Shown piece by piece: positions 2,234-31,913 of a stretch of 32,775 nucleotides of DNA; the stretch's first letter is position 1; every line of letters begins with the position of its first letter. The position numbers were made by a program, and so were the translations under genes. This DNA is from Patescibacteria group bacterium (GTDB taxonomy: Bacteria; Patescibacteriota; Minisyncoccia; Minisyncoccales; PWPS01). Where the stretch lies: NCBI GenBank assembly GCA_034661095.1, contig JAYEKQ010000044.1, forward strand, positions 1-32,775, in the 5' to 3' direction. Under the pieces are notes generated by a model. That model had not been told where the DNA came from. It worked only from the letters and a program-made list of their open reading frames with translations, and searched no databases.

Positions 2234-2241
2234 ACTATTCT

Positions 2242-3351: not shown

Positions 3352-3388
3352 ATTAAGGATAAGTGTTAAAAGGTGTACTGAATAAATG

Positions 3389-3459: not shown

Positions 3460-3470
3460 ATGACAAAGTG

Positions 3471-4600: not shown

Positions 4601-4601
4601 A

Positions 4602-7176: not shown

Positions 7177-8976
7177 CTATTTATTAAACACCTTGAAGTA
7201 TGCTTCTTCGGGAATGTTTACCCTTCCTTCTTTTTCTAGTCTCTTTTTTCCTTTCTTTTGTTTTTCAAGTAGTTTCCTCTTTCTTGTGATGTCTCCTCCG
7301 TAGAGAGGGGCAGTTACATCTTTTCTTCTTGCTTTAATTGTCTCTCTTGCAATTATTTTTCCTCCTACTCTTGCTTGAAGTGCTACTGCAAACTGCTGTG
7401 ACGGAATAACTTCTTTCAACTTAGCAACTGTTTTTTTCCCTTCCTGAAACGCTTCATCACGAGCAACAACAACTGAAAAAGCTTCATCAACTTTATGTGC
7501 TATTAAAATTTCCATCTTTACAAGATCTCCTGGATAAAATCCTTCTAACTTGTATCCAGCAGAGGCATATCCTTGAGTAGCACTCTTCAAATTATCATAA
7601 AAGTTAATTATCATTTTTCTTAAAGGAGCTCTATAGACAACAAGCACTCTGTTTGAAGATATATACCTTGTATCAAGATAAATTCCCCTTAAAGTTGCTA
7701 AAACTTCATTAACTTTACCAAGAGTATTTTCAGGAGTTATTATCTCAATTTTTGCCCACGGTTCTTTTGTCTCAGCAACTGCACTCTGATCTGGCCAATC
7801 AGAAGGTGATTGAATTTCTATCTCTTCTCCCCCTTTCATCTTTGCAATAAAAGCAACTGTTGGCGCTGATATAATAAGGTCAATGTCATATTCTCTTGAT
7901 AGCCGTTGAGAAATTATTTCAGAATGGAGAGATCCAAGAAATCCGCAACGAAATCCTCTTCCAAAAACTTGTTTAAATTCTGGAGTAAAAGTAAAAGCAG
8001 GATCAGTTAATTTTATCTCAAGAAGAGCGTTATAAAAGTTAAGATAATCTTCTGGATATCGCGGATAAAAACTACTAAAAACCATTGGATGAGGTTCTTT
8101 ATATCCTGGAAGAGGAAGAATATCATCTCCTCTCTTATAAATTGTGTCTCCTGACTTAACAACTCCAACTTCTTTAATTCCGGTAGCAATATATCCTATA
8201 TCACCAGCAGAAATTTTATTTTGTGGAGTGTGCTTTGGAGAAAAAAATCCAACTTCTTTTACTTCACCGTCACTATTAGAAGCAAAAAGAGAAATCTTTT
8301 CTTTATTGTTAATCTCACCCTCTACAACCCGAATATGGGCAATTATTCCTTTGTAAGCATTAAATTCTGAGTCAAAAACAAGAGCCCTAAATAGCTTCTT
8401 TTCTTCTTTTGAAGGTGCAGGAATTTTTTCAACAACAGCATCTAGCACTTGTTCAATATTAACTCCTTCTTTTCCAGATATTTTTATAATATCTTCTTTT
8501 TTAACATCAAGAGTTTGAACCATCTCTTCTTCAACTTCTTCTATCTTTGCTCCATCAAGATCAATCTTGTTTATAATTGGAATTATTTTAAAGTTATCTC
8601 CCTTCTTCTTTGCAAGATCAAAATTAGCAAGCGTTTGCGCCTGAACTCCTTTTGTAGCATCAACAAGAAGCACTGCTCCTTCAACTGCTTCTAATGAACG
8701 AGAGACTTCATAAGAAAAATCAACATGCCCTGGGGTGTCTATTAGATTTAAAATATAATCCTCTTTTTCTTTTCCATATCTGTAAATCATTCTAACTGGA
8801 CGAAGTTTAATTGTTATTCCTCTTTCTCTTTCCAATTCCATATCATCCAAAAACTGATCTTGCATATCTTTTTTTAAAACTGTTTTTGTCACTTCCAAAA
8901 AACGATCAGCAAGCGTTGATTTTCCAGCATCAATATGTGAAATTATACAAAAATTTCTTGTTTTGTTTTTATTCAT
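7177..8976 (-). CDS. lepA: Translation elongation factor 4 (LepA)
   Basis: NFCIISHIDAGKSTLADRFLE, DTPGHVDF, NKIDL and the LepA C-terminal domain. 599 aa. Confidence 0.95.
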   Translation of the reverse strand: MNKNKTRNFCIISHIDAGKSTLADRFLEVTKTVLKKDMQDQFLDDMELERERGITIKLRPVRMIYRYGKEKEDYILNLIDTPGHVDFSYEVSRSLEAVEGAVLLVDATKGVQAQTLANFDLAKKKGDNFKIIPIINKIDLDGAKIEEVEEEMVQTLDVKKEDIIKISGKEGVNIEQVLDAVVEKIPAPSKEEKKLFRALVFDSEFNAYKGIIAHIRVVEGEINNKEKISLFASNSDGEVKEVGFFSPKHTPQNKISAGDIGYIATGIKEVGVVKSGDTIYKRGDDILPLPGYKEPHPMVFSSFYPRYPEDYLNFYNALLEIKLTDPAFTFTPEFKQVFGRGFRCGFLGSLHSEIISQRLSREYDIDLIISAPTVAFIAKMKGGEEIEIQSPSDWPDQSAVAETKEPWAKIEIITPENTLGKVNEVLATLRGIYLDTRYISSNRVLVVYRAPLRKMIINFYDNLKSATQGYASAGYKLEGFYPGDLVKMEILIAHKVDEAFSVVVARDEAFQEGKKTVAKLKEVIPSQQFAVALQARVGGKIIARETIKARRKDVTAPLYGGDITRKRKLLEKQKKGKKRLEKEGRVNIPEEAYFKVFNK

Positions 8977-10598
8977 AATTTGTTTAGTGATCTAACCACC
9001 TCCTTAAGTTCTAAAGAATTTACTAACTTTAATGCCAAAAAATACATCACTCCTCCAACTAAAACTGAAATAGAAGTCGTAAGTAAAACTGCGAAAAAAG
9101 TGGTTAAGTGAAAAATATTTTCAATAAAAATTCTTGTTATATAAACAAAAACTCCCATTACTAACGAGGCAAAAACAGTTCTAATAATACAATTCTTTAT
9201 TCTTGGATTATAAAAATCAACCATCTTTTTCTTGAAAAAGTGAACAAGAAGAATCAGGTGTAAAATAGATGAAACAAAAATTGATAATGGAAAAGCAACA
9301 ACTTCAATCTCTTTTATTGATTCTAATCTTAAAACAAGTGACAAAAAGTCGTTAAACACTCCCCCACTTTGAATAATCCAGATAAAGAAGAAGGCAAGAA
9401 TAATGTTAGTTCCCATCGCAAACAAAGAAATTGCCACTGGTGTTTTTGTGTCTTGAAAAGAGAAAAAAGCGCGAACAATAATGTGAATAATTGCTCCCGC
9501 AAAGAATGCAAAAGAAAAAATACCAAGACAAGCAGCAGTAAGTTGTGTTTCTCTCCATCCAAAATTTTCTACTCCTAAAACAAGACGAACAATGTGAGCA
9601 CGAAGAAGAAAAACAATAACACTTGCTGGAATTATAAAAAATAAAACTTGGCAAATTACTTTTGAAAAACTTTCTGCAAACTGTTTTTTCCGTTTTTGAG
9701 CGACGGAACGAGAAAAAGCAGGAAAAGCAGCAATAGCAAAAGCAACACCAACAATTCTTATTGGAAAAGATTGAAAATTATTAGCAAGATTGAAAATAGA
9801 AATACTACCAGCAGTTAGCAAAGATGCCAACGCAGTAATAATAATAATGTTTATCTTTGCTGAAGCCTGTCCAATTATTCTTGGAATCATTAGAAAAAAA
9901 ACTTTATGAAGCTCTTTCTGTTTCAAATCAATAAATGGTTTATATGAAAAACCAGCAAAATATGCTGGGGGAATCTGAACCGCTAAGTGCAAAACAGCTC
10001 CAAAAATAACTCCATACGCTACTCCAACAAGTCCAAAGTGAGGAGCAAGAAAAATAATTCCTGATATGATTCCGATATTGTAAAATATCGGAGCAAGTGA
10101 GTATGCTAAAAATCTTTCAAAGTATTGCAAAAAACCAGAAAATAAACTTGATGCCCCTAGAATAATCGGACTAGCAAGCATTAACCTTGTTAGAAAAATT
10201 GTTTCTTTTAGTTCTTCCCCCGAAAAACCAGGAACAATAAATTTTATAATAAAAGGAGTTATAAAAAAAAGAACAGCGCAAATTAAAAAAAGTACTACTA
10301 AAAGAACATTCATTATATTGCTCGCCAATCTTAATCCTTCTTCTTTTGATTTTTCAAAAACACTTGAAAAAACAGGAAGAAAAACAGCAACAATTCCTCC
10401 AGTTATAAGTATTCCGTATATAAAATCAGGAATTCTGAAAGCAGCAAAATAAACATCAAGTTCTCCAACTGGAAAGTGAGTTACTAAAAGACGATCCCTC
10501 AATAATCCAAGAACGGCACTTACTCCTGTTGAAAAAGCAATTAGTACCGCTGAAAAAGTTATCGTCTTTGATCGTAAATTTATAATTTTTTTTATCAT
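8973..10598 (-). CDS. murJ: Lipid II flippase MurJ (MviN family)
   Basis: Polytopic MviN/MurJ-like protein. I start it at MIKKIINLRSKTITFSAVL (ATG 10596-10598), because the tracked N-terminal extension to 10679 runs into the RNase P RNA gene. It overlaps the lepA start by 4 nt. Confidence 0.85.
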   Translation of the reverse strand: MIKKIINLRSKTITFSAVLIAFSTGVSAVLGLLRDRLLVTHFPVGELDVYFAAFRIPDFIYGILITGGIVAVFLPVFSSVFEKSKEEGLRLASNIMNVLLVVLFLICAVLFFITPFIIKFIVPGFSGEELKETIFLTRLMLASPIILGASSLFSGFLQYFERFLAYSLAPIFYNIGIISGIIFLAPHFGLVGVAYGVIFGAVLHLAVQIPPAYFAGFSYKPFIDLKQKELHKVFFLMIPRIIGQASAKINIIIITALASLLTAGSISIFNLANNFQSFPIRIVGVAFAIAAFPAFSRSVAQKRKKQFAESFSKVICQVLFFIIPASVIVFLLRAHIVRLVLGVENFGWRETQLTAACLGIFSFAFFAGAIIHIIVRAFFSFQDTKTPVAISLFAMGTNIILAFFFIWIIQSGGVFNDFLSLVLRLESIKEIEVVAFPLSIFVSSILHLILLVHFFKKKMVDFYNPRIKNCIIRTVFASLVMGVFVYITRIFIENIFHLTTFFAVLLTTSISVLVGGVMYFLALKLVNSLELKEVVRSLNKL

Positions 10599-10608
10599 AT
10601 CCGTACCC

Positions 10609-11010
10609 TTAAGTCCAAGCAGGATCGTAAGCCGAATTCTGTTACCTTGAGAGATCTCTCTCTGCAAGACGGCAATCATTTATCTGGGATTAGTGTTACC
10701 ACTAACCTCTAGCGGATTACCCTACTAATCTTGATTAGTATGTTTACCCTTGCACCCAGGTAGGAATTTAGCCGTTTCAGCTGGATCTTTAATATAACCC
10801 AGATCACCTCACTAAAACTCTTTCAAGTTTCGCAAGGTGCCTTGATTCTTACGAATCTAGGCGTTTCTGTTCGCATCCCTAATCTCACGATCGACGGGAA
10901 TTACCCGCTACCCTTTTAAGGTGACCCCACCTTAATGAGTGTTCGGACTTTCCTCTCTCATGGGGTATAAACACCCCAAGAAAGCAATTGCCTCGCCTGC
11001 TCGGACTTAA
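10609..11010 (-). ncRNA. rnpB: RNase P RNA, bacterial type A
   Basis: Minus strand carries GAGAGGAAAGTCCGAAC (P4 5' strand) and GGTAACAGAATTCGGCTTAC (P4 3' strand). It also has AAAGGGTAGCGGGTAATTCCCG and a P1 pairing of AAGTCCGAGCAGG with CCTGCTTGGACTT. The region is visibly more GC-rich than its flanks. Confidence 0.9.
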
Positions 11011-11297: not shown

Positions 11298-12131
11298 TTA
11301 TTTTAAACCTTTGCTTCTTAAGCATTCTTGTCTTTCTTTTACCTTTTTATTGTAGTTATTTATCATCTGAGTTATCTCATTTACTATTCCATTGTATTCT
11401 ACTATTGAGTTGTCGCATCTTTCTGCTTTTTGATTATACTCTTCTCCGGTCTTATCTTCCATATTATCAATTTCAATTTTCAACTGGTCTATCTCATCTT
11501 TTAATCCCTTAACAATGTTTCTTTTTTCTTCTATTGCAACTTCTAACTGATCATCTACGACTGGACAGATTGAGAAAGGAGCCCCAAAAACCTGAACTGC
11601 AATCCATGTTTCTCTTCCTTCATAATAATCTTTTTTAACTGCAACTCCGATCTCAGTATAAACTTCATTTAGTATATTTTCTCGGTGGCCATCACTGTTC
11701 ATCCATGCTTCAAGTAGTTCTTCATCATCTTCATAAGGACCAATTGCTAAGTTGTCTCCAATAAAAAGATACTCATACCCTTCTTCTTTGGCAATGTCGT
11801 TAACTCCGTCTCCGTCAGGTGATATGTGAGCAAAATACCCTTCTCTGAACATATTTTCTAGCTTTAACATCGCTATTCTGTTAAGATCTTCGTTTTCTTG
11901 AAGAGTATTCATTAAAAAAAGCTCTCTCTGTTTGTTTGTTTCCGTTACCACTCCATTATGAGTTAAAAATCCCTCTTGATCAGTGCTTCCTTTTACAATC
12001 GGAGAAAGAAAAGATGGTTCTCCTATTTGATTTTCATTTTTTTCACTCGTACTTCCTAAAAAGAAAAATAATACTCCTGTCAAAACAACAAAAGTTGTCC
12101 ATAAAAAAACAGATCTTGTTTGGATATTCAT
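11298..12131 (-). CDS. Membrane-anchored CAP/SCP (YkwD-like) domain protein with C-terminal coiled coil
   Basis: N-terminal TM, then a CAP-domain-like core (GYFAHISPDG, WMNSDGHRENILNEVYTEIGVAV). Confidence 0.7.
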   Translation of the reverse strand: MNIQTRSVFLWTTFVVLTGVLFFFLGSTSEKNENQIGEPSFLSPIVKGSTDQEGFLTHNGVVTETNKQRELFLMNTLQENEDLNRIAMLKLENMFREGYFAHISPDGDGVNDIAKEEGYEYLFIGDNLAIGPYEDDEELLEAWMNSDGHRENILNEVYTEIGVAVKKDYYEGRETWIAVQVFGAPFSICPVVDDQLEVAIEEKRNIVKGLKDEIDQLKIEIDNMEDKTGEEYNQKAERCDNSIVEYNGIVNEITQMINNYNKKVKERQECLRSKGLK

Positions 12132-13183: not shown

Positions 13184-13867
13184 TTAATCGTTAATTACTG
13201 CCCTAATTCCAATCCTTCCTTCAATACTTCCTGGAGGCCAACAAGTCATAACAACTAACTCTTTTTTGTTTTCTTCATGGAAAATAGAAACAACATCTTC
13301 TCCCACTTCATATATCTCTTTTCCAATCTCTTCATCAATAACAGTGTAGTTATGTATTTTATTGTTATAACAAATCTCTATAACATCTCCCTCTTTCAGT
13401 TTATCTATCTCAGTAAAAATACGATCATATCTAATATCAGGCCATCCTGAAGGAGCAGAATGTCCTAAAAGAATAGACAACCCTTCTTCTCCCGGATAAG
13501 CAGAGTAAGAAAAATGAACTACTCCTCTGTTTAGTGCTTCTTTGTAACCACTACCATAAGGACTATAACTCTCAACAACCGGCGCTTGAATAGAGATAGC
13601 GTTTATTGTTACCTGATTTTCATCACAGTGATTATTTTCATTCTCGTCTTCGCCCTCCTCTTTTTCTGTTTCTTCTGCTTCAAATTCATCTTTAATACTA
13701 CTAATTTTATAGTGAACAATATCTGGAACAGATCTAATAAAAACAGGAATTTTTAGCATTTGATTAAAGTTAACAACAACCATAAAAAAAATAAAGATAA
13801 CCATTAGTATCCTTGCAAGAATTTTATCTTTTTTCGTAAAAAAGTTTTCTTCTTTTTTCGTACTCAC
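13184..13867 (-). CDS. Sortase family transpeptidase (GTG start)
   Basis: N-terminal TM, LLGHS histidine motif, VVMTCWPPGS catalytic-Cys motif and a downstream Arg (RIGIRAV). Confidence 0.75.
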   Translation of the reverse strand: MSTKKEENFFTKKDKILARILMVIFIFFMVVVNFNQMLKIPVFIRSVPDIVHYKISSIKDEFEAEETEKEEGEDENENNHCDENQVTINAISIQAPVVESYSPYGSGYKEALNRGVVHFSYSAYPGEEGLSILLGHSAPSGWPDIRYDRIFTEIDKLKEGDVIEICYNNKIHNYTVIDEEIGKEIYEVGEDVVSIFHEENKKELVVMTCWPPGSIEGRIGIRAVIND

Positions 13868-13972: not shown

Positions 13973-14422
13973 TTAAAATAACTTGTTATCTTCTTGCTTC
14001 TTCTCATCGTCTAGTACTTGATTAACCATACGATCAGCGTCTTTGTTTTTACTTCTAACAACATGCTTAATTTTAAAACTTTTAAAATTAAGGCGAGCGT
14101 TCCAAAGTTTAAGAAATAGTGGTTGTAGTTTCTCATTCTCAACCTTATATTTTCCTTGCATCTGCTTTGCCAAAAGCTCTGAATCAACGCAAAGCGTTAA
14201 TTCTGCTTCTTTGGCGAGTCGCTTTCCAAAGGATGCTTTAAATTTTTCCAATCCAAAAATAGCGGCCATATATTCTGCTTCGTTGTTTGTTAGATTGTCG
14301 CCTAGATACTTTCCATACTCTTTCATCTTCTCTCCTTTTTCATTGCAAATAACTGCTCCTGCTCCTGCTGGACCAGGATTTCCTCTTGCGCCCCCGTCAG
14401 TAAATATAATTATTTTTTTCAT
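13973..14422 (-). CDS. rnhA: Ribonuclease HI
   Basis: FTDGGARGNPGPAGAGAVI, NNEAEYMAAIFGLE, DSELLAKQMQGKYKV and NKDADRMVN carry the DEDD residues. Confidence 0.88.
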   Translation of the reverse strand: MKKIIIFTDGGARGNPGPAGAGAVICNEKGEKMKEYGKYLGDNLTNNEAEYMAAIFGLEKFKASFGKRLAKEAELTLCVDSELLAKQMQGKYKVENEKLQPLFLKLWNARLNFKSFKIKHVVRSKNKDADRMVNQVLDDEKKQEDNKLF

Positions 14423-15531
14423 ATATATAGGGAGTTATTAATCAAACACTTTTTAAATTCTTCTAAATTATCTTCTTTTAATCTAAACCCAGCAGCTGGA
14501 GCGTGTCCTCCAAAGTTTTCTAAAAGATGTTTGCACTTCTTCATCATATCAACAGCATCATCTCCAAAAGGAACTCTAACTGAACCACGAGCATATCCAT
14601 TTTCAACAATATATATAAAAACTGGCTTCTTGTGTTTTCTTATTACTCTTGTTGCTACTGTTCCCGTTAGAAAAGGAGGAAAGTTTCCTTTCATAAAAAT
14701 AATCGGTTCATCTGGTAAAATTTCTTTTTCTATTTCTTCTTCTGCCTTTTTTATAAGAATCTGCCTTTCTTTATAGTAATCTTTTAATTCTTCTGCTATT
14801 TCTTTTGCTTTCTCTTCTTTTTTTTCTATTAAAAAATGATACCCAGTAGTTGTTTTTTCAAGATGCCTTGTGTTGTTTAATAAAAAAACCGCTTTCTCAA
14901 TAAGTTTCTCTTCAGAAAGATTTTTCTTTAAGATTTTTAACCCTAAATTAACTGGATTTTTTAATGATTCAAGTCCCTTTTTAATAATTTTAAGATTATC
15001 TCCTTCTTTTGGCATCATATCTGCAAATGTAGCAAGAGTGGTTAACTCCAAAAATTCTCTTTCTTTTTCAGAAAACTTTTCTTTTAATATCTCCTTAGAT
15101 AACTTATAAACAATTCCTGCGTTCGCCATCTTCTTGAAAGGATAATTGTCATCTTCCTGCATCGGATCAAGTATCAACGATGCTTCTGGAAGTCTATCGT
15201 GGGTTTGGTGATGATCAATAACAATAACTTGAAACCCACTACTGTTTGCTTTTTTCACTCCCCTAAAATTTGAGATTCCACAATCCATCGTGATAAGAAG
15301 CGCTGGTGCTTCTTCCTTGATTGAATTCACTGCAACTTCAGTTAATCCTCTTCCTTCTTTCTCTATGTTATTGTTATAAACAACGCTCTTTCCTCCCAAC
15401 AAAGCGATACTTTTCTCTAACATTATCGCTGAAGTAATCCCATCTAGATCAGAATCAGAAAAAAGAACAATTTTTTCATTATTCTCCACCGCCTCCCTTA
15501 TTCTACAAGAAACTTCCTTTAAGTTTTTCAT
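14419..15531 (-). CDS. DHH/DHHA1 phosphoesterase, RecJ-like (short, 370 aa)
   Basis: DSDLDGITSAIML, LITMDCGISN, VIVIDHHQ and GGHAPAAGF motifs. Its stop overlaps the rnhA start by 4 nt. Confidence 0.8.
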   Translation of the reverse strand: MKNLKEVSCRIREAVENNEKIVLFSDSDLDGITSAIMLEKSIALLGGKSVVYNNNIEKEGRGLTEVAVNSIKEEAPALLITMDCGISNFRGVKKANSSGFQVIVIDHHQTHDRLPEASLILDPMQEDDNYPFKKMANAGIVYKLSKEILKEKFSEKEREFLELTTLATFADMMPKEGDNLKIIKKGLESLKNPVNLGLKILKKNLSEEKLIEKAVFLLNNTRHLEKTTTGYHFLIEKKEEKAKEIAEELKDYYKERQILIKKAEEEIEKEILPDEPIIFMKGNFPPFLTGTVATRVIRKHKKPVFIYIVENGYARGSVRVPFGDDAVDMMKKCKHLLENFGGHAPAAGFRLKEDNLEEFKKCLINNSLYI

Positions 15532-15580
15532 TATAAATAATAATAAATTTTTAATTTTTAAATGTTAAACTACAAACTGG

Positions 15581-15601
15581 ATTCCCAGTCAAGCTGGGAA
15601 T
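15581..15601. repeat. Hairpin attcccag tcaa gctgggaat downstream of pgk
   Basis: Inverted repeat. Related arms (tcccag ... ctgggaat) occur at 25769-25812. Confidence 0.6.
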
Positions 15602-15613
15602 GACAGTCAATGG

Positions 15614-16684
15614 TCAAGCAAGTGCTTTTATTCCTGGCATTTGTTTTTCAGTTAGATAAGCCAGCATCGCTCCTCCTCCAGAAGAAACTAGATCCATCTT
15701 ATCAACAACTTTTAATTTTTGCAAAGCATAATTTGTTTCACCACCACCACAAACCTTAAATGCTGATGAATTACTAGCAATATATTTTCCAATCTCTTCT
15801 GTTCCTTTGTGAAAAGGTTTTTTTTCAAAAAATCCAAGAGGTCCTGCCCAAATAATAGTTTTTGCTTTTTTAATAATATCACCATAAACCTTAACTGTTT
15901 CTGGTCCTATGTCAAAAATATCTTCATAATTTTGAACATCACTTACCGCAATTTTCTTTATTTTTCTCTTGTCATAAACAACTCCATCGGTTGGTAAATA
16001 AAGATTTTTAGAAGTGAAAAGTTTTGAACCCATAAAAGAGTTGGCAACCTTTCCTCCAAGAAGAACTGTGTACTTTTTTTTCAAAAAATAATCTATCGCT
16101 CCTGCTTTTGATTCAATTTTTGCTCCCCCAATCAAAACAACCACTGGTTTCTTGGGTCTTTTTATAATCTTATTCAAGGCATCAACTTCCTTCTCCATAA
16201 GAAGCCCCATTACTGACGGCAAAAAGAAAGGAATTTGAAAAATAGAAGCATGTTTTCTGTGAGAAACAGTAAAGGCATCATTTACAAAAAAATCACCTAA
16301 AATTGCTAGTTTCTTTCCGAAAGCTTTGCTATTTTCTTCCTCTTCCTTGTAATTACGAAGATTATTTAAAAGAATAACACTTCCTTCTTTCATATCTTCA
16401 ATTTTCTTTTCAACTTCTTCTCCAAGACAATCATCAGCAAAATAAACTTCTTTCTTTAAAAAAGAAGATAGTGCTTTTCTTATAGCAGAAGCACCTTCTT
16501 CTTTAAAGTGACTTATCAAGATAACTTTTCCTTTTCTTTTAAGGAGATACTCAATGGTAGGAACTGCTTGTCTTATTCTAAAGTCATCAGTTATTTTTCC
16601 TTTCTCATCTAACGGAACATTAAGCCCACAACGAACTAAAATTCTTTTTCCTTTTATTTTTTTTGAAATTTGTCTTAACTTCAT
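15614..16684 (-). CDS. pgk: Phosphoglycerate kinase (short, 356 aa)
   Basis: RCGLNVPLDEKGKITDDFRIRQAVPTIEYLL N-terminus and GGGETNYAL / SSGGGAMLAYL C-terminal motifs. Confidence 0.92.
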   Translation of the reverse strand: MKLRQISKKIKGKRILVRCGLNVPLDEKGKITDDFRIRQAVPTIEYLLKRKGKVILISHFKEEGASAIRKALSSFLKKEVYFADDCLGEEVEKKIEDMKEGSVILLNNLRNYKEEEENSKAFGKKLAILGDFFVNDAFTVSHRKHASIFQIPFFLPSVMGLLMEKEVDALNKIIKRPKKPVVVLIGGAKIESKAGAIDYFLKKKYTVLLGGKVANSFMGSKLFTSKNLYLPTDGVVYDKRKIKKIAVSDVQNYEDIFDIGPETVKVYGDIIKKAKTIIWAGPLGFFEKKPFHKGTEEIGKYIASNSSAFKVCGGGETNYALQKLKVVDKMDLVSSGGGAMLAYLTEKQMPGIKALA

Positions 16685-16708: not shown

Positions 16709-16740
16709 TAAAAAAGTGACAAAGGTGCAACCTTTGTCAC
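16709..16740 (-). terminator. Intrinsic terminator ending the secD-to-ATPase unit
   Basis: Perfect 10-bp stem gtgacaaagg / cctttgtcac (16716-16740), followed on the minus strand by TTTTTTATAA. The ATPase TGA stop lies inside the stem. Confidence 0.8.
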
Positions 16741-18344
16741 TTTTTCTTTTTTTGAAAAGCGCTTTTTATTGCATCTCTGAGTTTGTTTATAGAACTTTTT
16801 TTAGTTTCTTGCTCTTTCGCTAGATTAATTGCTTCACGAAAAAAGTTTTTTTCTTCTTTTGTTTCTTCCTTTTCTTTAGTTTTTTTGGTTTGTTTAATAG
16901 TTGTTTCTTTCTTTCTACAAGTTTTACAGTAAGTAGGTCTACTCCCATCAGGAAGAAAAGGAACTTTTGTTTTTTTACCGCACTTTGAACAGATAGCATC
17001 ATAAAGAACTTGCTCTTGTTGTGCTGGCTGTTCACCTTCCTTTACCTTAAAGTCTTGCAACCAACGAGAAAGCTTCTCTTCCACTTTTCTCTTGTCTTTT
17101 CCGTATCGTTCTCTGGAAGCATTTATTGCTTTTTCTGCCATATTCTCTTCTTCTACTTTAAATGGAGGAAGCGTTTTTGCTGAAAAGGGGTTTCCAGATA
17201 TTCCATCAATCATCAGTTTTGTATATATATTGTATTTTGGAAGATTAATTATATCTTCAATAGTAATATTCGTTGCAAACTCCTTCTCTAAAAGCTCTGA
17301 GTCTTTTGATCCCAATCGAAAAGCAACGATTGTTCCAACATTTCCTAAAATCGCATCTCTCATCTGACTACCTTGCCGATCTTGATCTTCAAGTTGACCC
17401 ACATACTGATGACTTAAAATTAAAGACAAACGATATTTTCTGGCTTCTGATAATATATTTATAAAAGAACGAGTTGCAAAGTTTTGAAACTCATCAATAT
17501 ACAAAAAAAAGTCTTTTCTTTCTTCTTCAGGAATCTTTACTCTCGCCATCGCTGCAATTTGTAACTTAGTAATAAGAAGAGCTCCAAGAAGCATTGAGTT
17601 GTCTTCTCCAAGTTTTCCCTTTGAAAGATCAACAATCAGTATTTTTCGATTGTTTATAATCTCTTCCATATCAATAGTTGACTTCACTTGCCCAATAATA
17701 TTTCTGATTAACGCGCTTGAAGCAAACTGTCCTACTTTGTTTTGAATTGCTGCTACTGCTTCTGTGGCATACTGCTGACTCCAAGAAGAAAACTCCTTTG
17801 TCCAAAATGCTTTCACTATTGGATCGGTTATTTTTTCAACCACTTTTTCTCTAAAAGTAGCATCAGACATCATTCTGCTTATTCCTAAAAGAGTTGAATT
17901 TGGATAATCAAGCAAAGCAAGAATCGTATTATTTAAAATATACTCCATTCTTGGTGACCAGACATCGGGCCATATCTTTTTGAAAATCCCCATCAATCCT
18001 GAAGCAACAAGGTGACGATGTTCTTTGTCCACTTCTTCCATCACATTAAATCCGATTACTTTATCAAGATCTGATGGATTAAAGTAAACTACATCACTGA
18101 TTCTTTCTTGAGGAATGTGTTTCAATAAAACTTCCGCTGCCTCACCATGAGGGTCAATAAATCCAATTCCTTCACCGTTTTTAATGTCTTGTATTGCCAT
18201 ATTTTCAAGCATTACTGACTTTCCCATTCCTGTTTTTCCAACGGAATAAAAGTGACGACGACGGTCATCTCTTTTTATTCCAAATTTCTTTTCTTGATTG
18301 CGAAAAGTAGTAACTCCAAAATATGTAATATCGTTGTTGTTCAT
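16737..18344 (-). CDS. VirD4/TraD-like (type IV coupling protein family) P-loop ATPase lacking TM segments, with C-terminal CxxC-N20-CxxC zinc ribbon and Lys-rich tail
   Basis: Walker A SVGKTGMGKS and Walker B FFLYIDEFQNF, with overall resemblance to TraD/TrwB/VirD4 NTPase domains (from memory, not searched). Tail contains CSKCGKKTKVPFLPDGSRPTYCKTC followed by K/E-rich sequence. Confidence 0.7.
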   Translation of the reverse strand: MNNNDITYFGVTTFRNQEKKFGIKRDDRRRHFYSVGKTGMGKSVMLENMAIQDIKNGEGIGFIDPHGEAAEVLLKHIPQERISDVVYFNPSDLDKVIGFNVMEEVDKEHRHLVASGLMGIFKKIWPDVWSPRMEYILNNTILALLDYPNSTLLGISRMMSDATFREKVVEKITDPIVKAFWTKEFSSWSQQYATEAVAAIQNKVGQFASSALIRNIIGQVKSTIDMEEIINNRKILIVDLSKGKLGEDNSMLLGALLITKLQIAAMARVKIPEEERKDFFLYIDEFQNFATRSFINILSEARKYRLSLILSHQYVGQLEDQDRQGSQMRDAILGNVGTIVAFRLGSKDSELLEKEFATNITIEDIINLPKYNIYTKLMIDGISGNPFSAKTLPPFKVEEENMAEKAINASRERYGKDKRKVEEKLSRWLQDFKVKEGEQPAQQEQVLYDAICSKCGKKTKVPFLPDGSRPTYCKTCRKKETTIKQTKKTKEKEETKEEKNFFREAINLAKEQETKKSSINKLRDAIKSAFQKKKK

Positions 18345-18346
18345 AA

Positions 18347-19663
18347 TTATACTGGCAAATTAGCAGGTGGCTCTTTCTTTTTTGCTTCAACTCTTGAAAT
18401 TGAAGAGTAAGGAGAAGAGTATTTTGAAGGAAAGTGATACAGGCTTGCAAGCTCTTCAGAGTTTAAAATAAAAGTTTGACCTTTTTTTGATTTAGGAAAA
18501 AATGCCGGAACTCTTCGCAAGTAGTTTCTAAAAATTTTTCTCTTTCTAACATATAATCGTCTTTCAATAAACCAAAACCAATTATACCAACCCTGACTAA
18601 TTTTAGTAATTGTTTCTTTCCATGGAGTAAGTTTATTGTGTCCATTAAACTGATTGATATAACCTATTGGTAATTTAACCCTGTTCCCTGAAAACTTTTC
18701 TTTTTTTGCAACATAAACAAAACGAATAAAACACTCATAAAGATGTTTTGATTTTTTTGCCTCAATCGCTTTTATCTTTTCTTTTTCTCCAGAAATCAGT
18801 TTCATTTCTGGAAGAGAGTCATCTTCTTTCACTTCTGGCTTAGGAGGAAATCCAATGAAAGTATTTAAAATATCTGCAAAAAATCCTAGTCCTTTTGGTT
18901 TTTCTCTTCTTCCTGCAATTTTGTTTATTTCTTTATCGGCTTTCTTGAAAAATCCTATTTCTGAATCAGCAACCGGAGTTGCACTTATTATAATCCAAAT
19001 CTGCTCTCCTTTTTCAATTCTGTTAAGACCTTCTACAAGATTTGCCATCGGATCAATCCTTTTTTCTTCTTTTATCTCTTTCTCTGTTTCAAACTCACGA
19101 TATGTTTTTATCGGATAAATATCCGTTCCAGAAATAGTAAAATCAGTCCCCCAAAGATCCCATCTTTCATTTGGAATATCAGTAGGAAGTTTTTGAGTAT
19201 AATCCTCAACTTCAAAAATTTCTGCCTCTGGGTATTCAGCATAAATACTTGACTCAAAAAGATCCCTGTCATTCACTGGGCAACGAACCAAAAAACGAGG
19301 ATTACCATCAATAGATATTACTTCAAGTGAAAATCCTGCTTCAGTTTTTCCCTTCCACCACTTGTCATACCAACTAGGGATACCATAGAGAGGCCAGAAC
19401 CCAACAATAACATTTTCCATAGCACGAATCGGTTTCTCCATATTTTGTGGAATAAAAACTTCCAACAAAATTGACTTATCATCACGAGAAATATTTCTCC
19501 AGAAGAGCCAGTGTCTTTTAACTTCTGGGATTAAAATAAAGGGAATTATGAGCCACCACCAAGTTGTAAAAATATCAAATACAATTTTAAAAAGAGGAAT
19601 TAACCCTGTAAATACCTCTGAAAAATCAGTCCATATTTTATTAAGCAATGGTATATTTTCCAT
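18347..19663 (-). CDS. Hypothetical membrane protein, partner of the T4CP-like ATPase
   Basis: N-terminal Trp-rich TM hairpin (IFTTWWWLIIPFILIP), a large soluble domain and a C-terminal ELASLYHFPS motif. Its stop is 2 nt from the ATPase start. No family recognised. Confidence 0.6.
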   Translation of the reverse strand: MENIPLLNKIWTDFSEVFTGLIPLFKIVFDIFTTWWWLIIPFILIPEVKRHWLFWRNISRDDKSILLEVFIPQNMEKPIRAMENVIVGFWPLYGIPSWYDKWWKGKTEAGFSLEVISIDGNPRFLVRCPVNDRDLFESSIYAEYPEAEIFEVEDYTQKLPTDIPNERWDLWGTDFTISGTDIYPIKTYREFETEKEIKEEKRIDPMANLVEGLNRIEKGEQIWIIISATPVADSEIGFFKKADKEINKIAGRREKPKGLGFFADILNTFIGFPPKPEVKEDDSLPEMKLISGEKEKIKAIEAKKSKHLYECFIRFVYVAKKEKFSGNRVKLPIGYINQFNGHNKLTPWKETITKISQGWYNWFWFIERRLYVRKRKIFRNYLRRVPAFFPKSKKGQTFILNSEELASLYHFPSKYSSPYSSISRVEAKKKEPPANLPV

Positions 19664-20615
19664 CAGGAGTTCTTATAAAATACTTTTTATTACTTAAATT
19701 TTGAATTATTGTATTTTTCTTTACTATTCTCTGCTTAGCAACATAAGTTATAATCTCATCTTTATAGAGAGCTCCTTCTTTTTTTAGTATCTTTCTAATA
19801 ACTTCTTTAACTTCTCCTGGAACATAGCCCCACTCAGCAAGAGCATAGACCCCTCTTCCAACAAGAACAAAAGAAGGATCTTTTATCAGTTCATTATGTG
19901 TTGTTTGTGGATTTGATTTTCCTTCAAGAGAAGCAGCGATATCTTTAAAGTGAAGAGGTTTTTTCGCTTCTTTCAAGGAAAGGTAAACTTTGTCTCTTAT
20001 TCCTTTTGGATTAACATCAGGCCACTTGTAGAGACCTAATTTTCCGTTTTTACTTTTTCCAATCTCTTTTGATGTTTCAATAATAAATAAAAGCTGATTT
20101 ATATCTATTTCTTCTTTTAATTTTTTTTTTATTTCTTCTGCTGAAAAAAGTTTTTTTTCTTTTTCAAAAATACTGTAAATTTCTTCTATTATTTTTTCTG
20201 CTTTATCTAGTTTTTCTTTATCAGTAACCCACACCACATATCTTTTTGGTGACTCGTAAACTCTTGAAAACTTTTCATCTATATTTAAAAGAAAAATAAT
20301 ATAATTTTTTTCATCATTGTTTTTAGTCAACTCTTCAAGAAAACTATCTTCTTTTCTGACTCCTCCAAACTCTTCCATCTTGTTTCTTAAAAACAAAAGA
20401 ACATCACTATACTTATCAACGCTTTTTTTGATCTTCCTTATTCCATCTCTTTCAATTTGGCGAACTCTTTCTCTGGTAATTCCATGACTCTTTCCAACTG
20501 CCTCTAGTGTTTCTCTTTTTTTTTCAAATAGACCAAACCTCTTAGAGATAATGTCTCTGGTTCTTTCTGGTAAAACAACCAGTAATTCTTTACAAATGTT
20601 TTTATAATTAAACAT
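19641..20615 (-). CDS. Sigma-70 region 4-like HTH protein with C-terminal HARE-HTH-like domain
   Basis: N-terminus RDIISKRFGLFEKKRETLEAVGKSHGITRERVRQIERDGIRKIKK resembles sigma region 4.2. C-terminus HFKDIAASL ... VLVGRGVYALAEWGY resembles a HARE-HTH / RpoE-delta N-domain. Its start is 4 nt after the secF stop. Confidence 0.6.
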   Translation of the reverse strand: MFNYKNICKELLVVLPERTRDIISKRFGLFEKKRETLEAVGKSHGITRERVRQIERDGIRKIKKSVDKYSDVLLFLRNKMEEFGGVRKEDSFLEELTKNNDEKNYIIFLLNIDEKFSRVYESPKRYVVWVTDKEKLDKAEKIIEEIYSIFEKEKKLFSAEEIKKKLKEEIDINQLLFIIETSKEIGKSKNGKLGLYKWPDVNPKGIRDKVYLSLKEAKKPLHFKDIAASLEGKSNPQTTHNELIKDPSFVLVGRGVYALAEWGYVPGEVKEVIRKILKKEGALYKDEIITYVAKQRIVKKNTIIQNLSNKKYFIRTPDGKYTIA

Positions 20616-20619: not shown

Positions 20620-21546
20620 CTAATTCTTCTTACTATTATTATGCCTTTTTATATCATTCCAGTCAAGAACAAGTGGTCCTGCAATAAATATTGAAGAGTA
20701 TGTTCCTACTGCAACACCTATTATTAAAGCTAAGGTAAAATAATATATATTACCACCTACTAAAAACAGCACAGAAAAAAGAACAAAAAGGGTAGTCAAA
20801 GATGTGCTTAAAGACCTTCCTACTACTTCATTTAAACTTTTATTAATAACTACTTCAAGCTCCCCTCTATCACTTTTTTCTTCTCTGTATTTTTCTTTTT
20901 TTCTTAAATTTTCTCTAATCCTATCAAAAATAACAACTGTGTCATTTAAAGAGTATCCAAGAGTTGTTAAAAAAGCAACAACGATTGGTACCGTAACTGG
21001 AACACTGTAAAAATATCCAAGCAGTGCAAATACTCCTGTCAAAATAAGAATATCGTGAAAAAAGGCAATTCCAGTTGCGATTACTCCATATTTCAAAGAA
21101 TTAACTGAACCATTTTTTTGTTGAAAGATAATACTAATATAGAAAATAACAAGCAGTGACGCTAATAAAATAGCAAATACTGAGTTCTTTTTAAGCTCAC
21201 TTCCAATTGTAGGTCCAATTGCTTTAAACTGTTTCACTTCAGCATTTTCTAACGCTCCTGTAATTGCTTCGTAAACCTCTTCTTCTGATTCTCTTGCTTT
21301 TATTAAAAAACCATCTTCTTCTAATGGCTGAACATTTATTTCATGAAGATTAAGCAGTTCTAATTTTTCTGCAACTTCTTCTACTGAAGGCCTGTTCTCT
21401 TGATACTCAACCTCAATAATACTTCCTCCTGAAAAGTCAATTCCAGGAACAAGTCCTAAAAAGATAACTGCAAGTAAACTCAAAAGACAAAAAGTTCCTG
21501 AAACCCAGTAATAAATATTTTTATATCTAATAAAATTTATACCCAT
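20620..21546 (-). CDS. secF: Protein translocase subunit SecF
   Basis: SecF topology and motifs (GIDFSGGS, DTVVIFDRIREN). Overlaps the secD stop by 10 nt. Confidence 0.92.
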   Translation of the reverse strand: MGINFIRYKNIYYWVSGTFCLLSLLAVIFLGLVPGIDFSGGSIIEVEYQENRPSVEEVAEKLELLNLHEINVQPLEEDGFLIKARESEEEVYEAITGALENAEVKQFKAIGPTIGSELKKNSVFAILLASLLVIFYISIIFQQKNGSVNSLKYGVIATGIAFFHDILILTGVFALLGYFYSVPVTVPIVVAFLTTLGYSLNDTVVIFDRIRENLRKKEKYREEKSDRGELEVVINKSLNEVVGRSLSTSLTTLFVLFSVLFLVGGNIYYFTLALIIGVAVGTYSSIFIAGPLVLDWNDIKRHNNSKKN

Positions 21547-22934
21547 ATTTTTCTTAATTTCAAATCCTCAAGTTTTTCACAAAAGAAAGCTCTTAACAAC
21601 ATCCTGTTAATAATCATCACCGAAAAAATACTAACTAAAATTCCTAATATTAACACTACTGCAAATCCACGGACAAAACTTGTTGTAATAAAGAAGATAA
21701 CAAAAGCGACAATCAGCGTTGTTATGTTTCCATCTCTTATTGATGACCACGCTTTCAGATAACTTTCTTCTATGCTTTTTCTTATATTACTACCCTTCTT
21801 CATCTCCTCTCTCATTCTTGATAAAACTAAAACATTGGCATCTATCGCCATTCCGATTGAAAGAATAAATCCAGCAATTCCCGAAAGAGTAAGTGTTACT
21901 CCAATTATTTTGAAAAGTGAAATCACTAAAAGCGTATAAACAAAAAGTGATATTACTGAAATAAGTCCTGACAAACGATAAACTAAAATAATAAAAATTG
22001 AAACTAATGTCGCCCCTACTAACCCTGCTTTTACAGCAAGAGCAAGGACCGTCACTCCAAGTTCAGGGCCAATGCTCTGTTGTGAAACAAGAGAAATAGG
22101 AACTGGTAGCGCTCCAATTCTTAAATCACGAGCAGTAGCATATGCTTCTTCTGCTGAAAAGTCACCACTAATCTGTGCTTTTCCTCCTGTTATTTTTTCT
22201 TGGACAACCGCTTCTTGAAGAATGCTTCCATCTAAAAATGTTGCTAGTGGCTTTCCTATATTACGGTCTGTTATCTCTTCAAAAAGCACCGCTCCTTTTT
22301 CATTAAACTCAAGAGTAATTAGCGGTTTTTGTGTTACTTGATTTATAACAACACTTGCGTCTTCAAGATGACGACCAGTAAGTCCAGTTAATTCATAGTG
22401 AGGAGTTGTTATCACTTCCCACCCTTCAATCTCTCCACTTTCTTCAACATCAAGTAAGTCTTGAAAAGTAACTTCGTTTCTTTCTTTATCAAGATACTCT
22501 TCAATCTCTTTCCATTTCTTTTCTTTTATTTCTTCTTTCTCTTCTGATATTTCTCGGAAGTCAAGAAAAGGAGTTTCTCCAATTATTTTTATCGCTTCTT
22601 CTAAATTATGCTGTCCAGGAATTTCAACTTCCAACCGATCTTCTCTTATTCGAACCGATGATTCCGTAATTCCATAAAGATTAATTCTTTTTTCAATCAA
22701 GTCACGCAAACCTTCCATTCTTTCTTCTTTTTCTCCTCCAGGGACATCTTCAAGATCTGCTTGATAGAGAAGATAAGCTCCTCCTTCAAGATCAAGTCCT
22801 AAATTAAAAGAAGACTCTTCCACTTTTGGAAAAGATTCTGGTGTTTTTTCATTAAACTGTTTAGGGAATATTATTACTCCACATAAAAATATCACTAAAA
22901 AAATAAACAGTATTGCTGTAATTTTTTCTTTCAT
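21537..22934 (-). CDS. secD: Protein translocase subunit SecD
   Basis: LGLDLEGGAYLLY periplasmic-domain start and a C-terminal six-TM SecD region (GMAIDANVLVLSRMREE). Confidence 0.92.
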   Translation of the reverse strand: MKEKITAILFIFLVIFLCGVIIFPKQFNEKTPESFPKVEESSFNLGLDLEGGAYLLYQADLEDVPGGEKEERMEGLRDLIEKRINLYGITESSVRIREDRLEVEIPGQHNLEEAIKIIGETPFLDFREISEEKEEIKEKKWKEIEEYLDKERNEVTFQDLLDVEESGEIEGWEVITTPHYELTGLTGRHLEDASVVINQVTQKPLITLEFNEKGAVLFEEITDRNIGKPLATFLDGSILQEAVVQEKITGGKAQISGDFSAEEAYATARDLRIGALPVPISLVSQQSIGPELGVTVLALAVKAGLVGATLVSIFIILVYRLSGLISVISLFVYTLLVISLFKIIGVTLTLSGIAGFILSIGMAIDANVLVLSRMREEMKKGSNIRKSIEESYLKAWSSIRDGNITTLIVAFVIFFITTSFVRGFAVVLILGILVSIFSVMIINRMLLRAFFCEKLEDLKLRKIWV

Positions 22935-22943: not shown

Positions 22944-22972
22944 AATATAACATTTTTAATCATCAATGTCAA
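22944..22972 (-). promoter_or_regulatory. Promoter TTGACA-N17-(TGt)TATATT for secD, 9 nt from the ATG
   Basis: Minus strand reads TTGACAttgatgattaaaaaTGtTATATTattagagttATG. Confidence 0.6.
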
Positions 22973-31772: not shown

Positions 31773-31913
31773 CCAAAGAAAGCGCACAAAACAACGCAAA
31801 ACTTTTCCCGAGGTGAGACCTCGGGAAACTCCCCCTCCTCATCGTCATTCTGAGCGGAACGAAGTGAAGCGAAGAATCTTATGGTTTCTGCAAGGATGAT
31901 GGGATTCTTCACT
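31773..31913. repeat. Composite repeat: AAAGAAAGC leader, CCCGAGG hairpin, left arm and loop of the long palindrome (right arm truncated)
   Basis: Aligns with 22988-23046. Hairpin at 31807-31825. gtcattctgagcggaacgaagtgaagcgaagaatcttatggtttctgcaaggatgatgggattcttcact spans 31844-31913. Confidence 0.8.

Follow-up and report, generated by a model that had tools for sequence, protein, structure and literature searches.

Background

Patescibacteria constitute a very large bacterial branch, most of it uncultured. Their genomes are tiny, and almost any gene retained in them can be expected to matter. The subject of this report is a locus of three adjacent genes in a 32,775-nt stretch of DNA from a Patescibacteria group bacterium (contig JAYEKQ010000044.1, positions 1 to 32,775 of the forward strand), referred to below as the window. 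The genes encode a helix-turn-helix (HTH) protein (gene 1), a membrane protein of the DUF8128 family (gene 2), and an ATPase (gene 3) related to the coupling proteins (T4CPs) of type IV secretion systems (T4SSs).

T4CPs such as TrwB of plasmid R388, VirD4, DotL, and Cag-beta combine a P-loop domain, which contains an inserted helical region, with an N-terminal transmembrane (TM) domain. VirB4 (TrwK in R388) consists of a membrane-associated N-terminal domain (NTD) followed by an ATPase of the FtsK-HerA superfamily. The NTD-like part can also be a separate gene located directly upstream of the ATPase gene, as is the case for TrsD and TrsE of pSK41/pGO1 and for TrsD and VirB4 of the Patescibacteria T4SS. 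CedB and CedD of the crenarchaeal Ced system (Sulfolobales) are chromosomally encoded, harbor a TM part, a VirB4-NTD-like domain, and an FtsK-HerA-superfamily ATPase, and move DNA (PMC11868833).

Homologues of VirD4-type T4CPs are abundant in Patescibacteria. A 2025 survey counts 5,713 such proteins in 2,918 of 3,035 genomes (96%), with 148 of the 5,713 located near virB4; VirB4 itself occurs in 2,417 (80%) and relaxases in 103 of the 3,035 genomes (Quinonero-Coronel et al. 2025, PMC12102498). In Table S3 of the survey, the Patescibacteria T4SS clusters read VirB3-TrsD-VirB4, with TrsD remotely similar to the N-terminal portion of VirB4, and the t4cp1 entries stand alone. Exaptation for other functions is raised there as a possibility for the T4CP homologues. 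The window ATPase family and these orphan T4CP homologues are almost certainly the same gene population. A first-pass annotation of the window had found the locus assignable to no described system, which stands for the triad itself but not for its ATPase, a member of the orphan population. The available part of the survey mentions neither a DUF8128 or HTH partner nor a zinc finger, SecDF/pgk synteny, or fused relatives.

In the literature searched, no description of the triad was found, nor any paper that mentions “DUF8128”. The main text of the Southlakia paper (PMC10633639) was found to contain none of the terms VirD4, T4CP, coupling protein, FtsK, or SecDF, and that of the Minisyncoccus description (PMC12281837) none of the terms FtsK, type IV secretion, VirD4, cell division, competence, or ComEC. 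Literature searches on FtsK in Patescibacteria or Parcubacteria were likewise unproductive.

The locus is interpreted here as a conserved three-gene module of Parcubacteria-type Patescibacteria. There is about an even chance that this module is a membrane-tethered nucleic-acid motor with a DNA-binding adaptor and that it serves a T4SS.

Split and unsplit forms of the ATPase

Sequence comparisons identify the membrane protein and the ATPase as the halves of a single ATPase of the T4SS family. Both halves are found within PHROG 5156 (824 profile positions), where the ATPase matches positions 386-814 (E 7e-58) and the DUF8128 protein matches positions 76-330 (E 8e-4). The same arrangement is present in phage G gp156 (825 aa), in which residues 33-316 correspond to columns 85-422 of DUF8128 (hhalign, E 5e-9, probability 95.9%) and residues ~382-751 align with ATPase residues 35-393 (28% identity, E 1e-35). 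Thus, gp156 is collinear with the window pair, and its inter-domain linker corresponds to the DUF8128 tail and the first 35 residues of the ATPase. Geobacillus phage TP-84 gp48 (754 aa) shows the same pattern more weakly (E 1.4e-4). Large plasmids of Clostridium botulinum and C. sporogenes carry full-length relatives of gp156, with 24.5% identity over residues 29-776 (E ~1e-37). For the pCLK protein (800 aa), the link to DUF8128 rests on transitivity through gp156, and its direct comparison with the DUF8128 profile is not significant.

The unsplit relatives keep T4SS-like company. The gp156 gene follows that of the VirB4-like gp155, which matches P-loop_TraG, AAA_10, and, weakly, CagE_TrbE_VirB, and is a relative of pSK41 TrsE (E 1e-17). 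The pCLK homologue is preceded by a TrbC/VirB2-family gene with a 4-nt overlap, and a gene that weakly matches TrbC/VirB2 precedes TP-84 gp48. No HTH partner resembling gene 1 is found beside gp156, gp48, or the pCLK homologue.

The first-pass annotation had proposed that the membrane protein and the ATPase are a split coupling protein. The split is substantiated by the gp156 fusion and PHROG 5156, but the unsplit form is not a canonical T4CP. Both gp156 and gp48 have an internal hydrophobic segment and no N-terminal TM helix, and the pCLK protein has neither. The membrane piece does not stand in for the lost TM domain of a canonical T4CP but is a single-pass anchor bearing a domain with the VirB4 NTD fold, and a T4CP-type TM domain at the N terminus is absent from the unsplit relatives as well. 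The pair is instead a split ATPase that joins a VirB4-like architecture to a coupling-protein-type motor, and not a T4CP shorn of its TM domain.

Firmicute phages and large botulinum-toxin plasmids harbor small T4SS-like gene pairs (gp155-gp156 in locus L088, gp47-gp48 in L089, and pCLK 108421-111221 in L090). Each pair consists of a VirB4-like ATPase or a TrbC/VirB2-like small protein together with a 750-825-aa protein in which an NTD precedes a T4CP-like ATPase. The TP-84 pair sits in the early/replication region of the phage, and PHROG 5156 is listed as “unknown function”.

The DUF8128 membrane protein

Gene 2 is assigned to DUF8128 by homology. Its homologues down to ~40% identity, including one at 90%, carry the precomputed family PF26449 (DUF8128), whereas none of 48 aligned members matched PF26449 in the Pfam copy that was scanned, from which the model is apparently absent. 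At 50% identity and E <= 0.001, the family falls into 2,798 clusters. Of the best 150, most are ~400-580 aa long, and all are too short to include the ATPase as a fusion partner. No relative was found among IMG/VR viral contigs. The window protein is Trp-rich (17 Trp, 3.9% of 438 aa) and has no match by sequence in the Protein Data Bank (PDB).

A single TM helix is predicted near the N terminus, where a Kyte-Doolittle mean of 1.6 or more is reached in the only such 19-residue window of the protein. The AlphaFold model of the protein, built on a 48-sequence alignment (pLDDT 81.5, pTM 0.77), has a single long helix at residues 5-60. The TM hairpin described in the first-pass annotation is thus replaced by one strongly hydrophobic segment within one long helix. 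On the basis of the basic residues that follow the TM helix, the positive-inside rule would place the N terminus outside and the C terminus inside, such that the large domain is cytoplasmic.

The fold of the large domain is informative. In a Foldseek comparison of the DUF8128 model with the PDB, all 13 matches at E <= 0.001 are TrwK/VirB4 chains of R388 (E 4e-5 to 3e-4, probability 0.99-1.0), and the next match is unrelated (E 0.017). The PDB also holds dozens of TrwB, HerA, and FtsK chains; such chains are recovered with the ATPase model and not with the DUF8128 model. Since the domain has no Walker motif and no other P-loop ATPase is matched, the match must be to the VirB4 NTD, which we take to be resolved only in the full-length TrwK cryo-EM structures matched by DUF8128. 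The modelled likeness of DUF8128 to the VirB4 NTD is a similarity at the level of the fold, with homology unproven.

Searches of the predicted viral structures in BFVD with the same model (Foldseek) lend independent support, as they return a 913-aa protein of Bacillus phage JL (E 4.5e-17), phage G gp156 (E 5.4e-17, TM-score 0.49), a 551-aa protein of phage Slash (E 7e-15), phage G gp155, which is VirB4-like (E 7.6e-8), and, at E 1e-3, a phage protein that bears the name “component of type IV transporter system”. The DUF8128 profile has no significant match to the N-terminal extension of a 708-aa Bradyrhizobium T4CP-like protein. The protein ends in a conserved tail (Table 1), a candidate docking peptide for the ATPase.

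The T4CP-type ATPase

The ATPase exceeds the Pfam cut-offs for TrwB_AAD_bind (38.0 bits, cut-off 20.5) and TraG-D_C (27.1 bits, cut-off 22), and the T4CP-like family call of the first-pass annotation holds under these profile searches. It also matches zf_Tbcl_2 (47.7 bits, cut-off 27) and, in NCBIfam, TIGR04272 (49.1 bits). In contrast, DUF87 (HerA) scores 18.5 bits, under its cut-off of 23.2. The remaining NCBIfam matches are weak and partial for TraD models and weak, in the Walker A region, for CedD (E 7.6e-5). No CagE_TrbE_VirB, AAA_10, or P-loop_TraG match is found in Pfam, and no FtsK_SpoIIIE match in Pfam or NCBIfam. Among solved structures in the PDB, the sequence matches only TrwB (E 2.4e-6, covering both Walker regions) and DotL.

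At a pLDDT of 63.6, the AlphaFold model of the ATPase has low confidence and serves for fold-family assignment only. In Foldseek, TrwB fills nearly all of the top 30 places, accompanied by DotL and Cag-beta, and is followed by HerA and DndH-C, so that HerA structures rank below T4CPs. VirB4 is absent from the top 50 matches, and FtsK is not among the fold matches listed. Pairwise BLASTP comparisons of the ATPase with PcfC and PrgJ were uninformative.

Between Walker A and Walker B, the model contains helices (residues 107-231, pLDDT 51-77) that may form an inserted, all-alpha-like region, and the TrwB_AAD_bind alignment spans this part. The Walker residues are invariant in 40 homologues (Table 1), as are R302, K303, Y304, R305, and Q313 downstream of Walker B (EARKYRL and HQY motifs), a pattern that suggests an active enzyme. 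No 19-residue window reaches a Kyte-Doolittle mean of 1.6. Given this, and because Walker A begins at residue 36, the protein has no room for an N-terminal TM domain. The coupling-protein-like Walker A and B motifs (residues 36-43 and 279-285) without a TM anchor, as first reported, are thus borne out.

The C-terminal part harbors two elements that are not part of the motor domain, i.e., a treble-clef zinc finger and a lysine-rich tail. For domains of the CxxC-x17-CxxC type, zinc binding has been demonstrated in small proteins of Methanosarcina mazei (PMC12704099). The lysine-rich tail may bind nucleic acid.

The homologues of the ATPase form more than 8,000 clusters, the best 120 of which are 60-88% identical. 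[quoted passage not shown] The first of these names agrees with membership in the orphan T4CP population.

On plasmids, the nearest relatives of the ATPase gene stand alone and are found in Alphaproteobacteria, namely 99994-101181 of a Sulfitobacter plasmid (L084, 38% identity) and 150073-152199 of a Bradyrhizobium plasmid (L085, 29%). One of them lies beside transposases; the other is 708 aa long, carries an unrelated N-terminal extension, and is surrounded by CHAT/TPR genes. Of the matches in the plasmid collection, most (459 of 633) fall on predicted non-mobilizable plasmids.

The HTH protein

Gene 1 encodes a protein with an N-terminal sigma-70 region 4 that is closest to the primary sigma factors SigA/RpoD (PDB single-sequence E 2.7e-9, family profile E 5.8e-15). 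Sigma regions 2 and 3 were not found with Pfam or NCBIfam, and the NCBIfam sigma models are matched solely via their C-terminal 50-60 residues and far below their cut-offs. The protein was rejected as a bona fide sigma factor on account of the absent regions 2 and 3.

The second domain is a probable HARE-HTH winged helix. PF05066 is precomputed on most homologues and is marked “weak” in L001 and L003; homologues also carry PF04545. The invariant columns of the family are concentrated at residues 194-321, which include the HARE-HTH. The sigma-r4/HARE-HTH architecture of the first-pass annotation is therefore firm for region 4 (50.6 bits) and supported by PF05066 in most homologues, but the HARE-HTH of the window protein itself scores below the cut-off. 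The protein is probably the DNA-binding component of the triad and may act as an adaptor.

Conservation and synteny

A scan of one genome per species finds DUF8128 relatives in at least 568 species genomes, all of them Patescibacteria among the matches listed. Synteny was counted in the best 80 of the at least 568 DUF8128 loci, which include Nealson-, Wildermuth-, Staskawicz-, Terry-, Moran-, Komeili-, Gribaldo-, and Spechtbacteria as well as the cultured Minisyncoccus archaeiphilus PMX.108 (L056). The triad is kept across these loci, with the HTH gene adjoining the DUF8128 gene in 74 of 76 evaluable loci and the ATPase gene adjoining it in 68 of 70. Recurrence of the gene set in 80 of 80 related loci examined is far above chance.

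The linkage extends beyond the triad on both sides. Immediately upstream of the HTH gene lies secF (54 of 64 loci), with secA further upstream in many, and pgk is next downstream of the ATPase gene (55 of 68). The SecDF linkage highlighted in the first-pass annotation is frequent but not obligatory, as the triad is intact without upstream SecDF in L062, L073, L080, and L082; there, a histidine kinase, a glycosyltransferase, YchF, and others are the neighbors, without a T4SS gene among them. It is thus the triad that is conserved as a unit. Because the pgk-DHH-RNase H linkage is about as strong, the SecDF linkage may reflect core gene order. Both secD and secF are treated here as context of the module. 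T4SS and relaxase genes were absent from the surroundings in all 83 loci examined.

The proteins of the neighborhood differ in constraint. Over the best 80 loci, the median identity to the window proteins is 61% for the ATPase, 57% for SecA, 54% for RNase H, 44% for SecD, 42% for the HTH protein and PGK, 41% for SecF, 40% for the DHH protein, and 39% for DUF8128. A notable feature is that a conjugation-type ATPase is more constrained than SecA.

Several variations on the common arrangement are observed. The downstream pgk, 370-aa DHH/DHHA1 protein, and RNase H genes (window 13973-16684, minus strand) are nearly as syntenic with the ATPase gene as secDF, and the DHH/DHHA1 protein and RNase H are nucleic-acid enzymes. 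A 1,164-aa ORF is inserted into the triad in two loci. In L056 (9411-12905), it lies between the DUF8128 and ATPase genes and has a pilin-type N_methyl motif and Gly_rich_2; in L072 (Staskawiczbacteria, 1131-4625), it lies between the HTH and DUF8128 genes and has PG_binding_1 and a SpaA-like domain. The two inserted ORFs thus have identical length and different domains.

In L001, an S-adenosylmethionine synthetase gene (3404-4636) lies between secD and secF, and gaps of at least ~1.1 kb separate these two genes in other loci (e.g., L013, L019, L020, L022, L036, L039, L060, and L078), suggesting that insertion between secD and secF is a recurrent arrangement. No secF was detected in some loci (L003, 3967-5289; L070; L050), where the HTH gene is preceded by a 440-aa protein with SecDF_P1_head only or by a very divergent secD. 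The taxonomic labels of L048 and L054 and many labels reading “uncultured Candidatus Saccharibacteria” appear inconsistent with the content (“Candidatus Pacearchaeota archaeon”, “Eubacteriales bacterium”); since the synteny of these loci is of the Parcubacteria type, the labels probably reflect mis-binning or generic naming.

Proposed function

Confidence in the structural description is high, and that in the functional steps is moderate to low. It is hypothesized that DUF8128 tethers and organizes oligomers of the ATPase, hexamers by analogy with TrwB, at the cytoplasmic face of the membrane. The module contains three elements of nucleic-acid-binding type (the sigma region 4/HARE-HTH protein, the zinc finger, and the lysine-rich tail), which would capture nucleic acid, most likely DNA. 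ATP hydrolysis would then drive the captured substrate toward a membrane conduit. As one TM helix per subunit cannot make a channel, this conduit must be encoded elsewhere, and the most likely candidate would be the chromosomal Patescibacteria T4SS (VirB3-TrsD-VirB4-VirB6-VirB8), which has no linked coupling protein. A T4SS is favored for this lack of a linked coupling protein and because the unsplit relatives keep T4SS company. Moreover, it is with its NTD that R388 VirB4 contacts VirB3 and VirB8 at the membrane, which likewise favors a T4SS as the conduit.

Several observations weigh against a T4SS-serving motor or one of its parts. The TrwK matches of DUF8128 have low TM-scores (~0.33, rmsd 9-10 Å), hhalign comparisons of the DUF8128 profile with pCF10 PrgJ/VirB4, pSK41 TrsD, and phage G gp155 are not significant, and the ATPase model is of low confidence, as given above. 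One TM helix in each subunit is not enough to build a DNA channel, and the HTH protein could simply be the regulator of the operon. Conservation above SecA is unusual for coupling proteins. The module is never beside T4SS genes in the loci examined. T4CP homologues also occur in more genomes than VirB4 (2,918 versus 2,417 of 3,035), some genomes in Table S3 have a T4CP but no VirB4, and the T4CP homologue of Southlakia epibionticum, a putative orthologue only, is reported as non-essential whereas the T4SS genes of this organism are essential (PMC12102498).

In the main rival reading, which is possible although doubtful, the module is instead a T4SS-independent core DNA pump, in which anchor, motor, and DNA reader form a three-polypeptide analogue of FtsK/SpoIIIE for clearing or segregating the chromosome at division, or else a cytoplasmic motor that draws in DNA entering via ComEC. 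FtsK is composed of TM, alpha-beta motor, and gamma domains, and the combination of anchor, motor, and winged helix in the triad parallels this organization. Such a pump better explains the very strong conservation of a near-universal ATPase above the level of SecA, as well as the division, envelope, and translation neighborhood (FtsEX, DivIC, MurJ, SecA, and SecDF). It also better explains why T4CP homologues (96% of genomes) are more widespread than VirB4 (80%) in the survey (PMC12102498). Further points in its favor are that no T4SS genes lie nearby and that the conserved downstream genes encode the nucleic-acid enzymes DHH/DHHA1 and RNase H. However, the motor is T4CP-type and has no FtsK_SpoIIIE signature, FtsK has been reported for Saccharibacterium TM7x, and the unsplit relatives reside in T4SS-like phage and plasmid contexts.

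The closeness of region 4 to the primary sigma factors raises the question of a machine for transcription or nucleoid organization. Here, the HTH protein would dock on the beta-flap of RNA polymerase or on -35-like DNA, and the tethered ATPase would remodel or anchor transcribing DNA, for example so as to link transcription with membrane insertion by the Sec machinery. The delta subunit of RNA polymerase has the HARE-HTH fold, and SecA, SecD, and SecF are encoded directly upstream in most loci. In addition, one small CxxC-x17-CxxC protein is annotated as an RNA polymerase subunit (PMC12704099). Nevertheless, action on RNA polymerase is not known for any relative of the ATPase, the sigma region 4 fold alone is a generic HTH, and the Sec linkage is not obligatory. 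This explanation, including its Sec-coupled form, is considered unlikely.

The position of secF directly upstream of the triad (54 of 64 loci), with secA further upstream in many, could also mean that a protein or another non-nucleic-acid substrate is exported with the Sec machinery, such that the HTH protein is a regulator only. DotL and Cag-beta, both structural neighbors of the ATPase, deliver proteins. This is quite unlikely, given that the triad is intact without SecDF in L062, L073, L080, and L082, that the pgk/DHH/RNase H linkage is equally strong and the Sec linkage therefore probably core synteny, and that three separate nucleic-acid-binding-type elements are present.

A decayed conjugative element or prophage remnant, or a MADS/HerA-type phage defense system, fixed by chance beside secDF is very improbable and was rejected on synteny, conservation, and context: the ATPase does match PADLOC mad8 (E 7e-19) and, weakly, HerA defense models, the HTH protein matches MzaA via sigma region 4, and the nearest relatives outside Patescibacteria are on plasmids and phages, but these mad8 and MzaA matches are single-domain only, no integrase, relaxase, or partner defense gene is present, the same chromosomal position is held in ~80 divergent genomes under constraint stronger than that on SecA, the triad shows no compositional anomaly (GC 0.31-0.35 within a window range of 0.29-0.37), and IMG/VR viral contigs hold no DUF8128 relative.

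The preferred T4SS-serving motor and the core pump differ in what the module would mean. The ATPase is among the best conserved proteins of its neighborhood and is present in hundreds of species genomes without an assigned function. What was an “orphan T4CP homologue” becomes a defined module that has a DUF8128 partner of VirB4-NTD fold and a partner that binds DNA and that is related to unsplit proteins of Firmicute phages and plasmids. Should it serve the T4SS of Patescibacteria, which is essential, it would be the missing substrate-recruitment arm of an apparatus that these epibionts require for life on their hosts. If it is independent of the T4SS, a conjugation-type motor would have been domesticated for housekeeping chromosome handling in one of the largest bacterial radiations, which would explain why the ATPase is conserved above SecA and spread more widely than VirB4. 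The module occurs in the cultured Minisyncoccus archaeiphilus (L056), and relatives occur in cultivable hosts.

Genomic context and transcription signals

The three genes and the two sec genes are listed in Table 1 together with their domains, motifs, and transcription signals. The tight packing first reported is confirmed, with a 4-nt gap between secF and the HTH gene, a 23-nt overlap between the HTH and membrane protein genes, and a 2-nt gap between the latter and the ATPase gene. Pfam SecD/SecF families are on record for the homologous genes of locus L001.

Table 1. Coordinates of the module, its upstream neighbors, and associated signals in the window
Feature	Position	Strand	Basis or remarks
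Gene 3, ATPase, 535 aa	16737-18344	-	ORF
Gene 2, membrane protein, 438 aa	18347-19663	-	ORF
Gene 1, HTH protein, 324 aa	19641-20615	-	ORF
secF	20620-21546	-	ORF; usual upstream neighbor of the triad
secD	21537-22934	-	ORF; usual upstream neighbor of the triad
ATPase: T4CP-type nucleotide-binding domain, residues 26-348	17301-18269	-	TrwB_AAD_bind profile positions 12-314 of 387
ATPase: Walker A GKTGMGKS, residues 36-43	18216-18239	-	G36, K37, T38, G39, G41, and K42 invariant in 40 homologues
ATPase: Walker B FFLYIDE, residues 279-285	17490-17510	-	D284 and E285 invariant in 40 homologues
ATPase: CxxC-x17-CxxC treble-clef zinc finger, residues 447-479	16908-17006	-	C452, C455, and C473 invariant, C476 nearly so
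ATPase: lysine-rich low-complexity C-terminal tail, residues 480-535	16740-16907	-	Sequence; low pLDDT
Membrane protein: predicted TM helix, residues ~27-46, WWW..LPFILW motif followed by a basic stretch	19526-19585	-	Hydrophobicity and conserved motif
Membrane protein: putative cytoplasmic alpha/beta domain, residues ~62-422, no Walker motifs	18398-19480	-	VirB4 N-terminal-domain fold (Foldseek)
Membrane protein: conserved C-terminal tail RVEAKK..P..LP	18350-18397	-	R424, K429, P433, L436, and P437 (nearly) invariant; pLDDT <50 at 425-438
HTH protein: sigma-70 region 4, residues 8-66	20418-20594	-	Pfam Sigma70_r4, 50.6 bits
HTH protein: HARE-HTH winged helix, residues 214-262	19830-19976	-	Pfam, 19.1 bits, below the cut-off of 25.9
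Promoter-like site TTGACA-17-TATATT with extended TG, 11/12	22944-22972	-	Upstream of secD; best such site of the region
Promoter-like site TTGACT-17-CATAAT, 10/12	20638-20666	-	Within the secF 3′ end, 23 nt before the HTH start
Promoter-like site, 10/12	19584-19612	-	Consensus match
Terminator-like hairpin followed by a U run	16711-16745	-	Overlaps the ATPase stop codon; fold -22 kcal/mol, z = -6.2

The promoter that the first-pass annotation placed upstream of secD is the top-scoring match in the region, and the strong terminator that it placed at 16716-16740 coincides with the hairpin in Table 1. Its statement that there is no internal promoter was too strong, as two 10/12 matches lie at 20666-20638 and 19612-19584; the first of these may be a promoter for the triad alone, as judged from the match to consensus. 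The class as a whole is not enriched over shuffled sequences (23 found versus 25 expected). The five-gene transcript and the translocation function put forward in the first-pass annotation remain hypothetical. Since pgk overlaps or abuts the ATPase gene in L001 and L003, the 3′ operon boundary seen in the window is not a conserved feature.

The window has a low GC content (about 0.29-0.37), and its assignable genes of at least 100 aa are all on the minus strand. One flank encodes Obg, YchF, FtsE/FtsX, a release factor, DivIC, LepA, MurJ, TruB, and a sortase and continues with RNase H, a DHH/DHHA1 protein, and PGK. The other flank encodes SecA, a ribosome hibernation factor, MurB, a 5′-3′ exonuclease, and a DUF218 protein. 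Two tRNAs and an RNase P RNA are also present. The housekeeping context claimed at first is upheld, with flanking genes that are all housekeeping and with relaxase, VirB4, pilin, and integrase not found in the window.

Other features of the window do not involve the triad. The RNase P RNA is class A (135 bits; 10612-11003, minus strand) and overlaps the 5′ end of the murJ ORF (8973-10679) by ~68 nt, suggesting that the true murJ start is probably further downstream. A protein with a CAP (cysteine-rich secretory protein) domain and a sortase are encoded amid the housekeeping genes (11298-12131 and 13184-13867, respectively, both minus strand) and may have cell-surface or host-interaction roles. 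Two ORFs, 29557-30966 (469 aa) and 31909-32742 (277 aa), both minus strand, have no Pfam match at E <= 0.001.

Comparison with known systems

The window ATPase shares with TrwB of R388, VirD4, DotL, and Cag-beta the P-loop domain and the conserved motifs, and it may also have their inserted helical region. In contrast to these T4CPs, it lacks an N-terminal TM domain and a relaxase/T4SS neighborhood, and it harbors a zinc finger and a lysine-rich tail. It is further distinguished by its VirB4-NTD-like membrane partner and by being chromosomal, near-universal in its lineage, and strongly conserved. The concept of a soluble, TM-less T4CP-type ATPase that is recruited by a separately encoded membrane partner is also realized in TraJ/TraI of pIP501. 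However, the latter are plasmid-borne and reside inside a full conjugation operon.

The FtsK/SpoIIIE proteins combine a motor domain, a multi-pass N-terminal membrane domain, and a gamma winged helix in one protein, a combination that is not found here.

VirB4 (TrwK) has the same architecture as DUF8128 plus the ATPase, and the TrsD pairs cited at the outset provide a precedent for encoding the NTD-like part in a separate gene directly upstream. The differences are that the ATPase half of the window pair is T4CP-type and that DUF8128 has no sequence-level similarity to TrsD or PrgJ.

The proteins of the gp156/PHROG 5156 type and the pCLK 800-aa “ATP-binding protein” are unsplit, collinear versions of DUF8128 plus the ATPase. 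Unlike the window pair, they are single polypeptides without an N-terminal TM helix, a zinc finger, or an HTH partner, and they are found on phages and plasmids beside VirB4-like or TrbC/VirB2-like genes. Their function is likewise unassigned.

The Ced ATPases belong to the HerA/VirB4 clade, are single polypeptides, and work with the CedA/CedA1 channel and pilus genes, which sets them apart from the window pair. Nonetheless, by analogy of architecture only, CedB/CedD may be regarded as the closest functional precedent for the module, as an example of chromosomal, non-conjugative DNA transport (PMC11868833).

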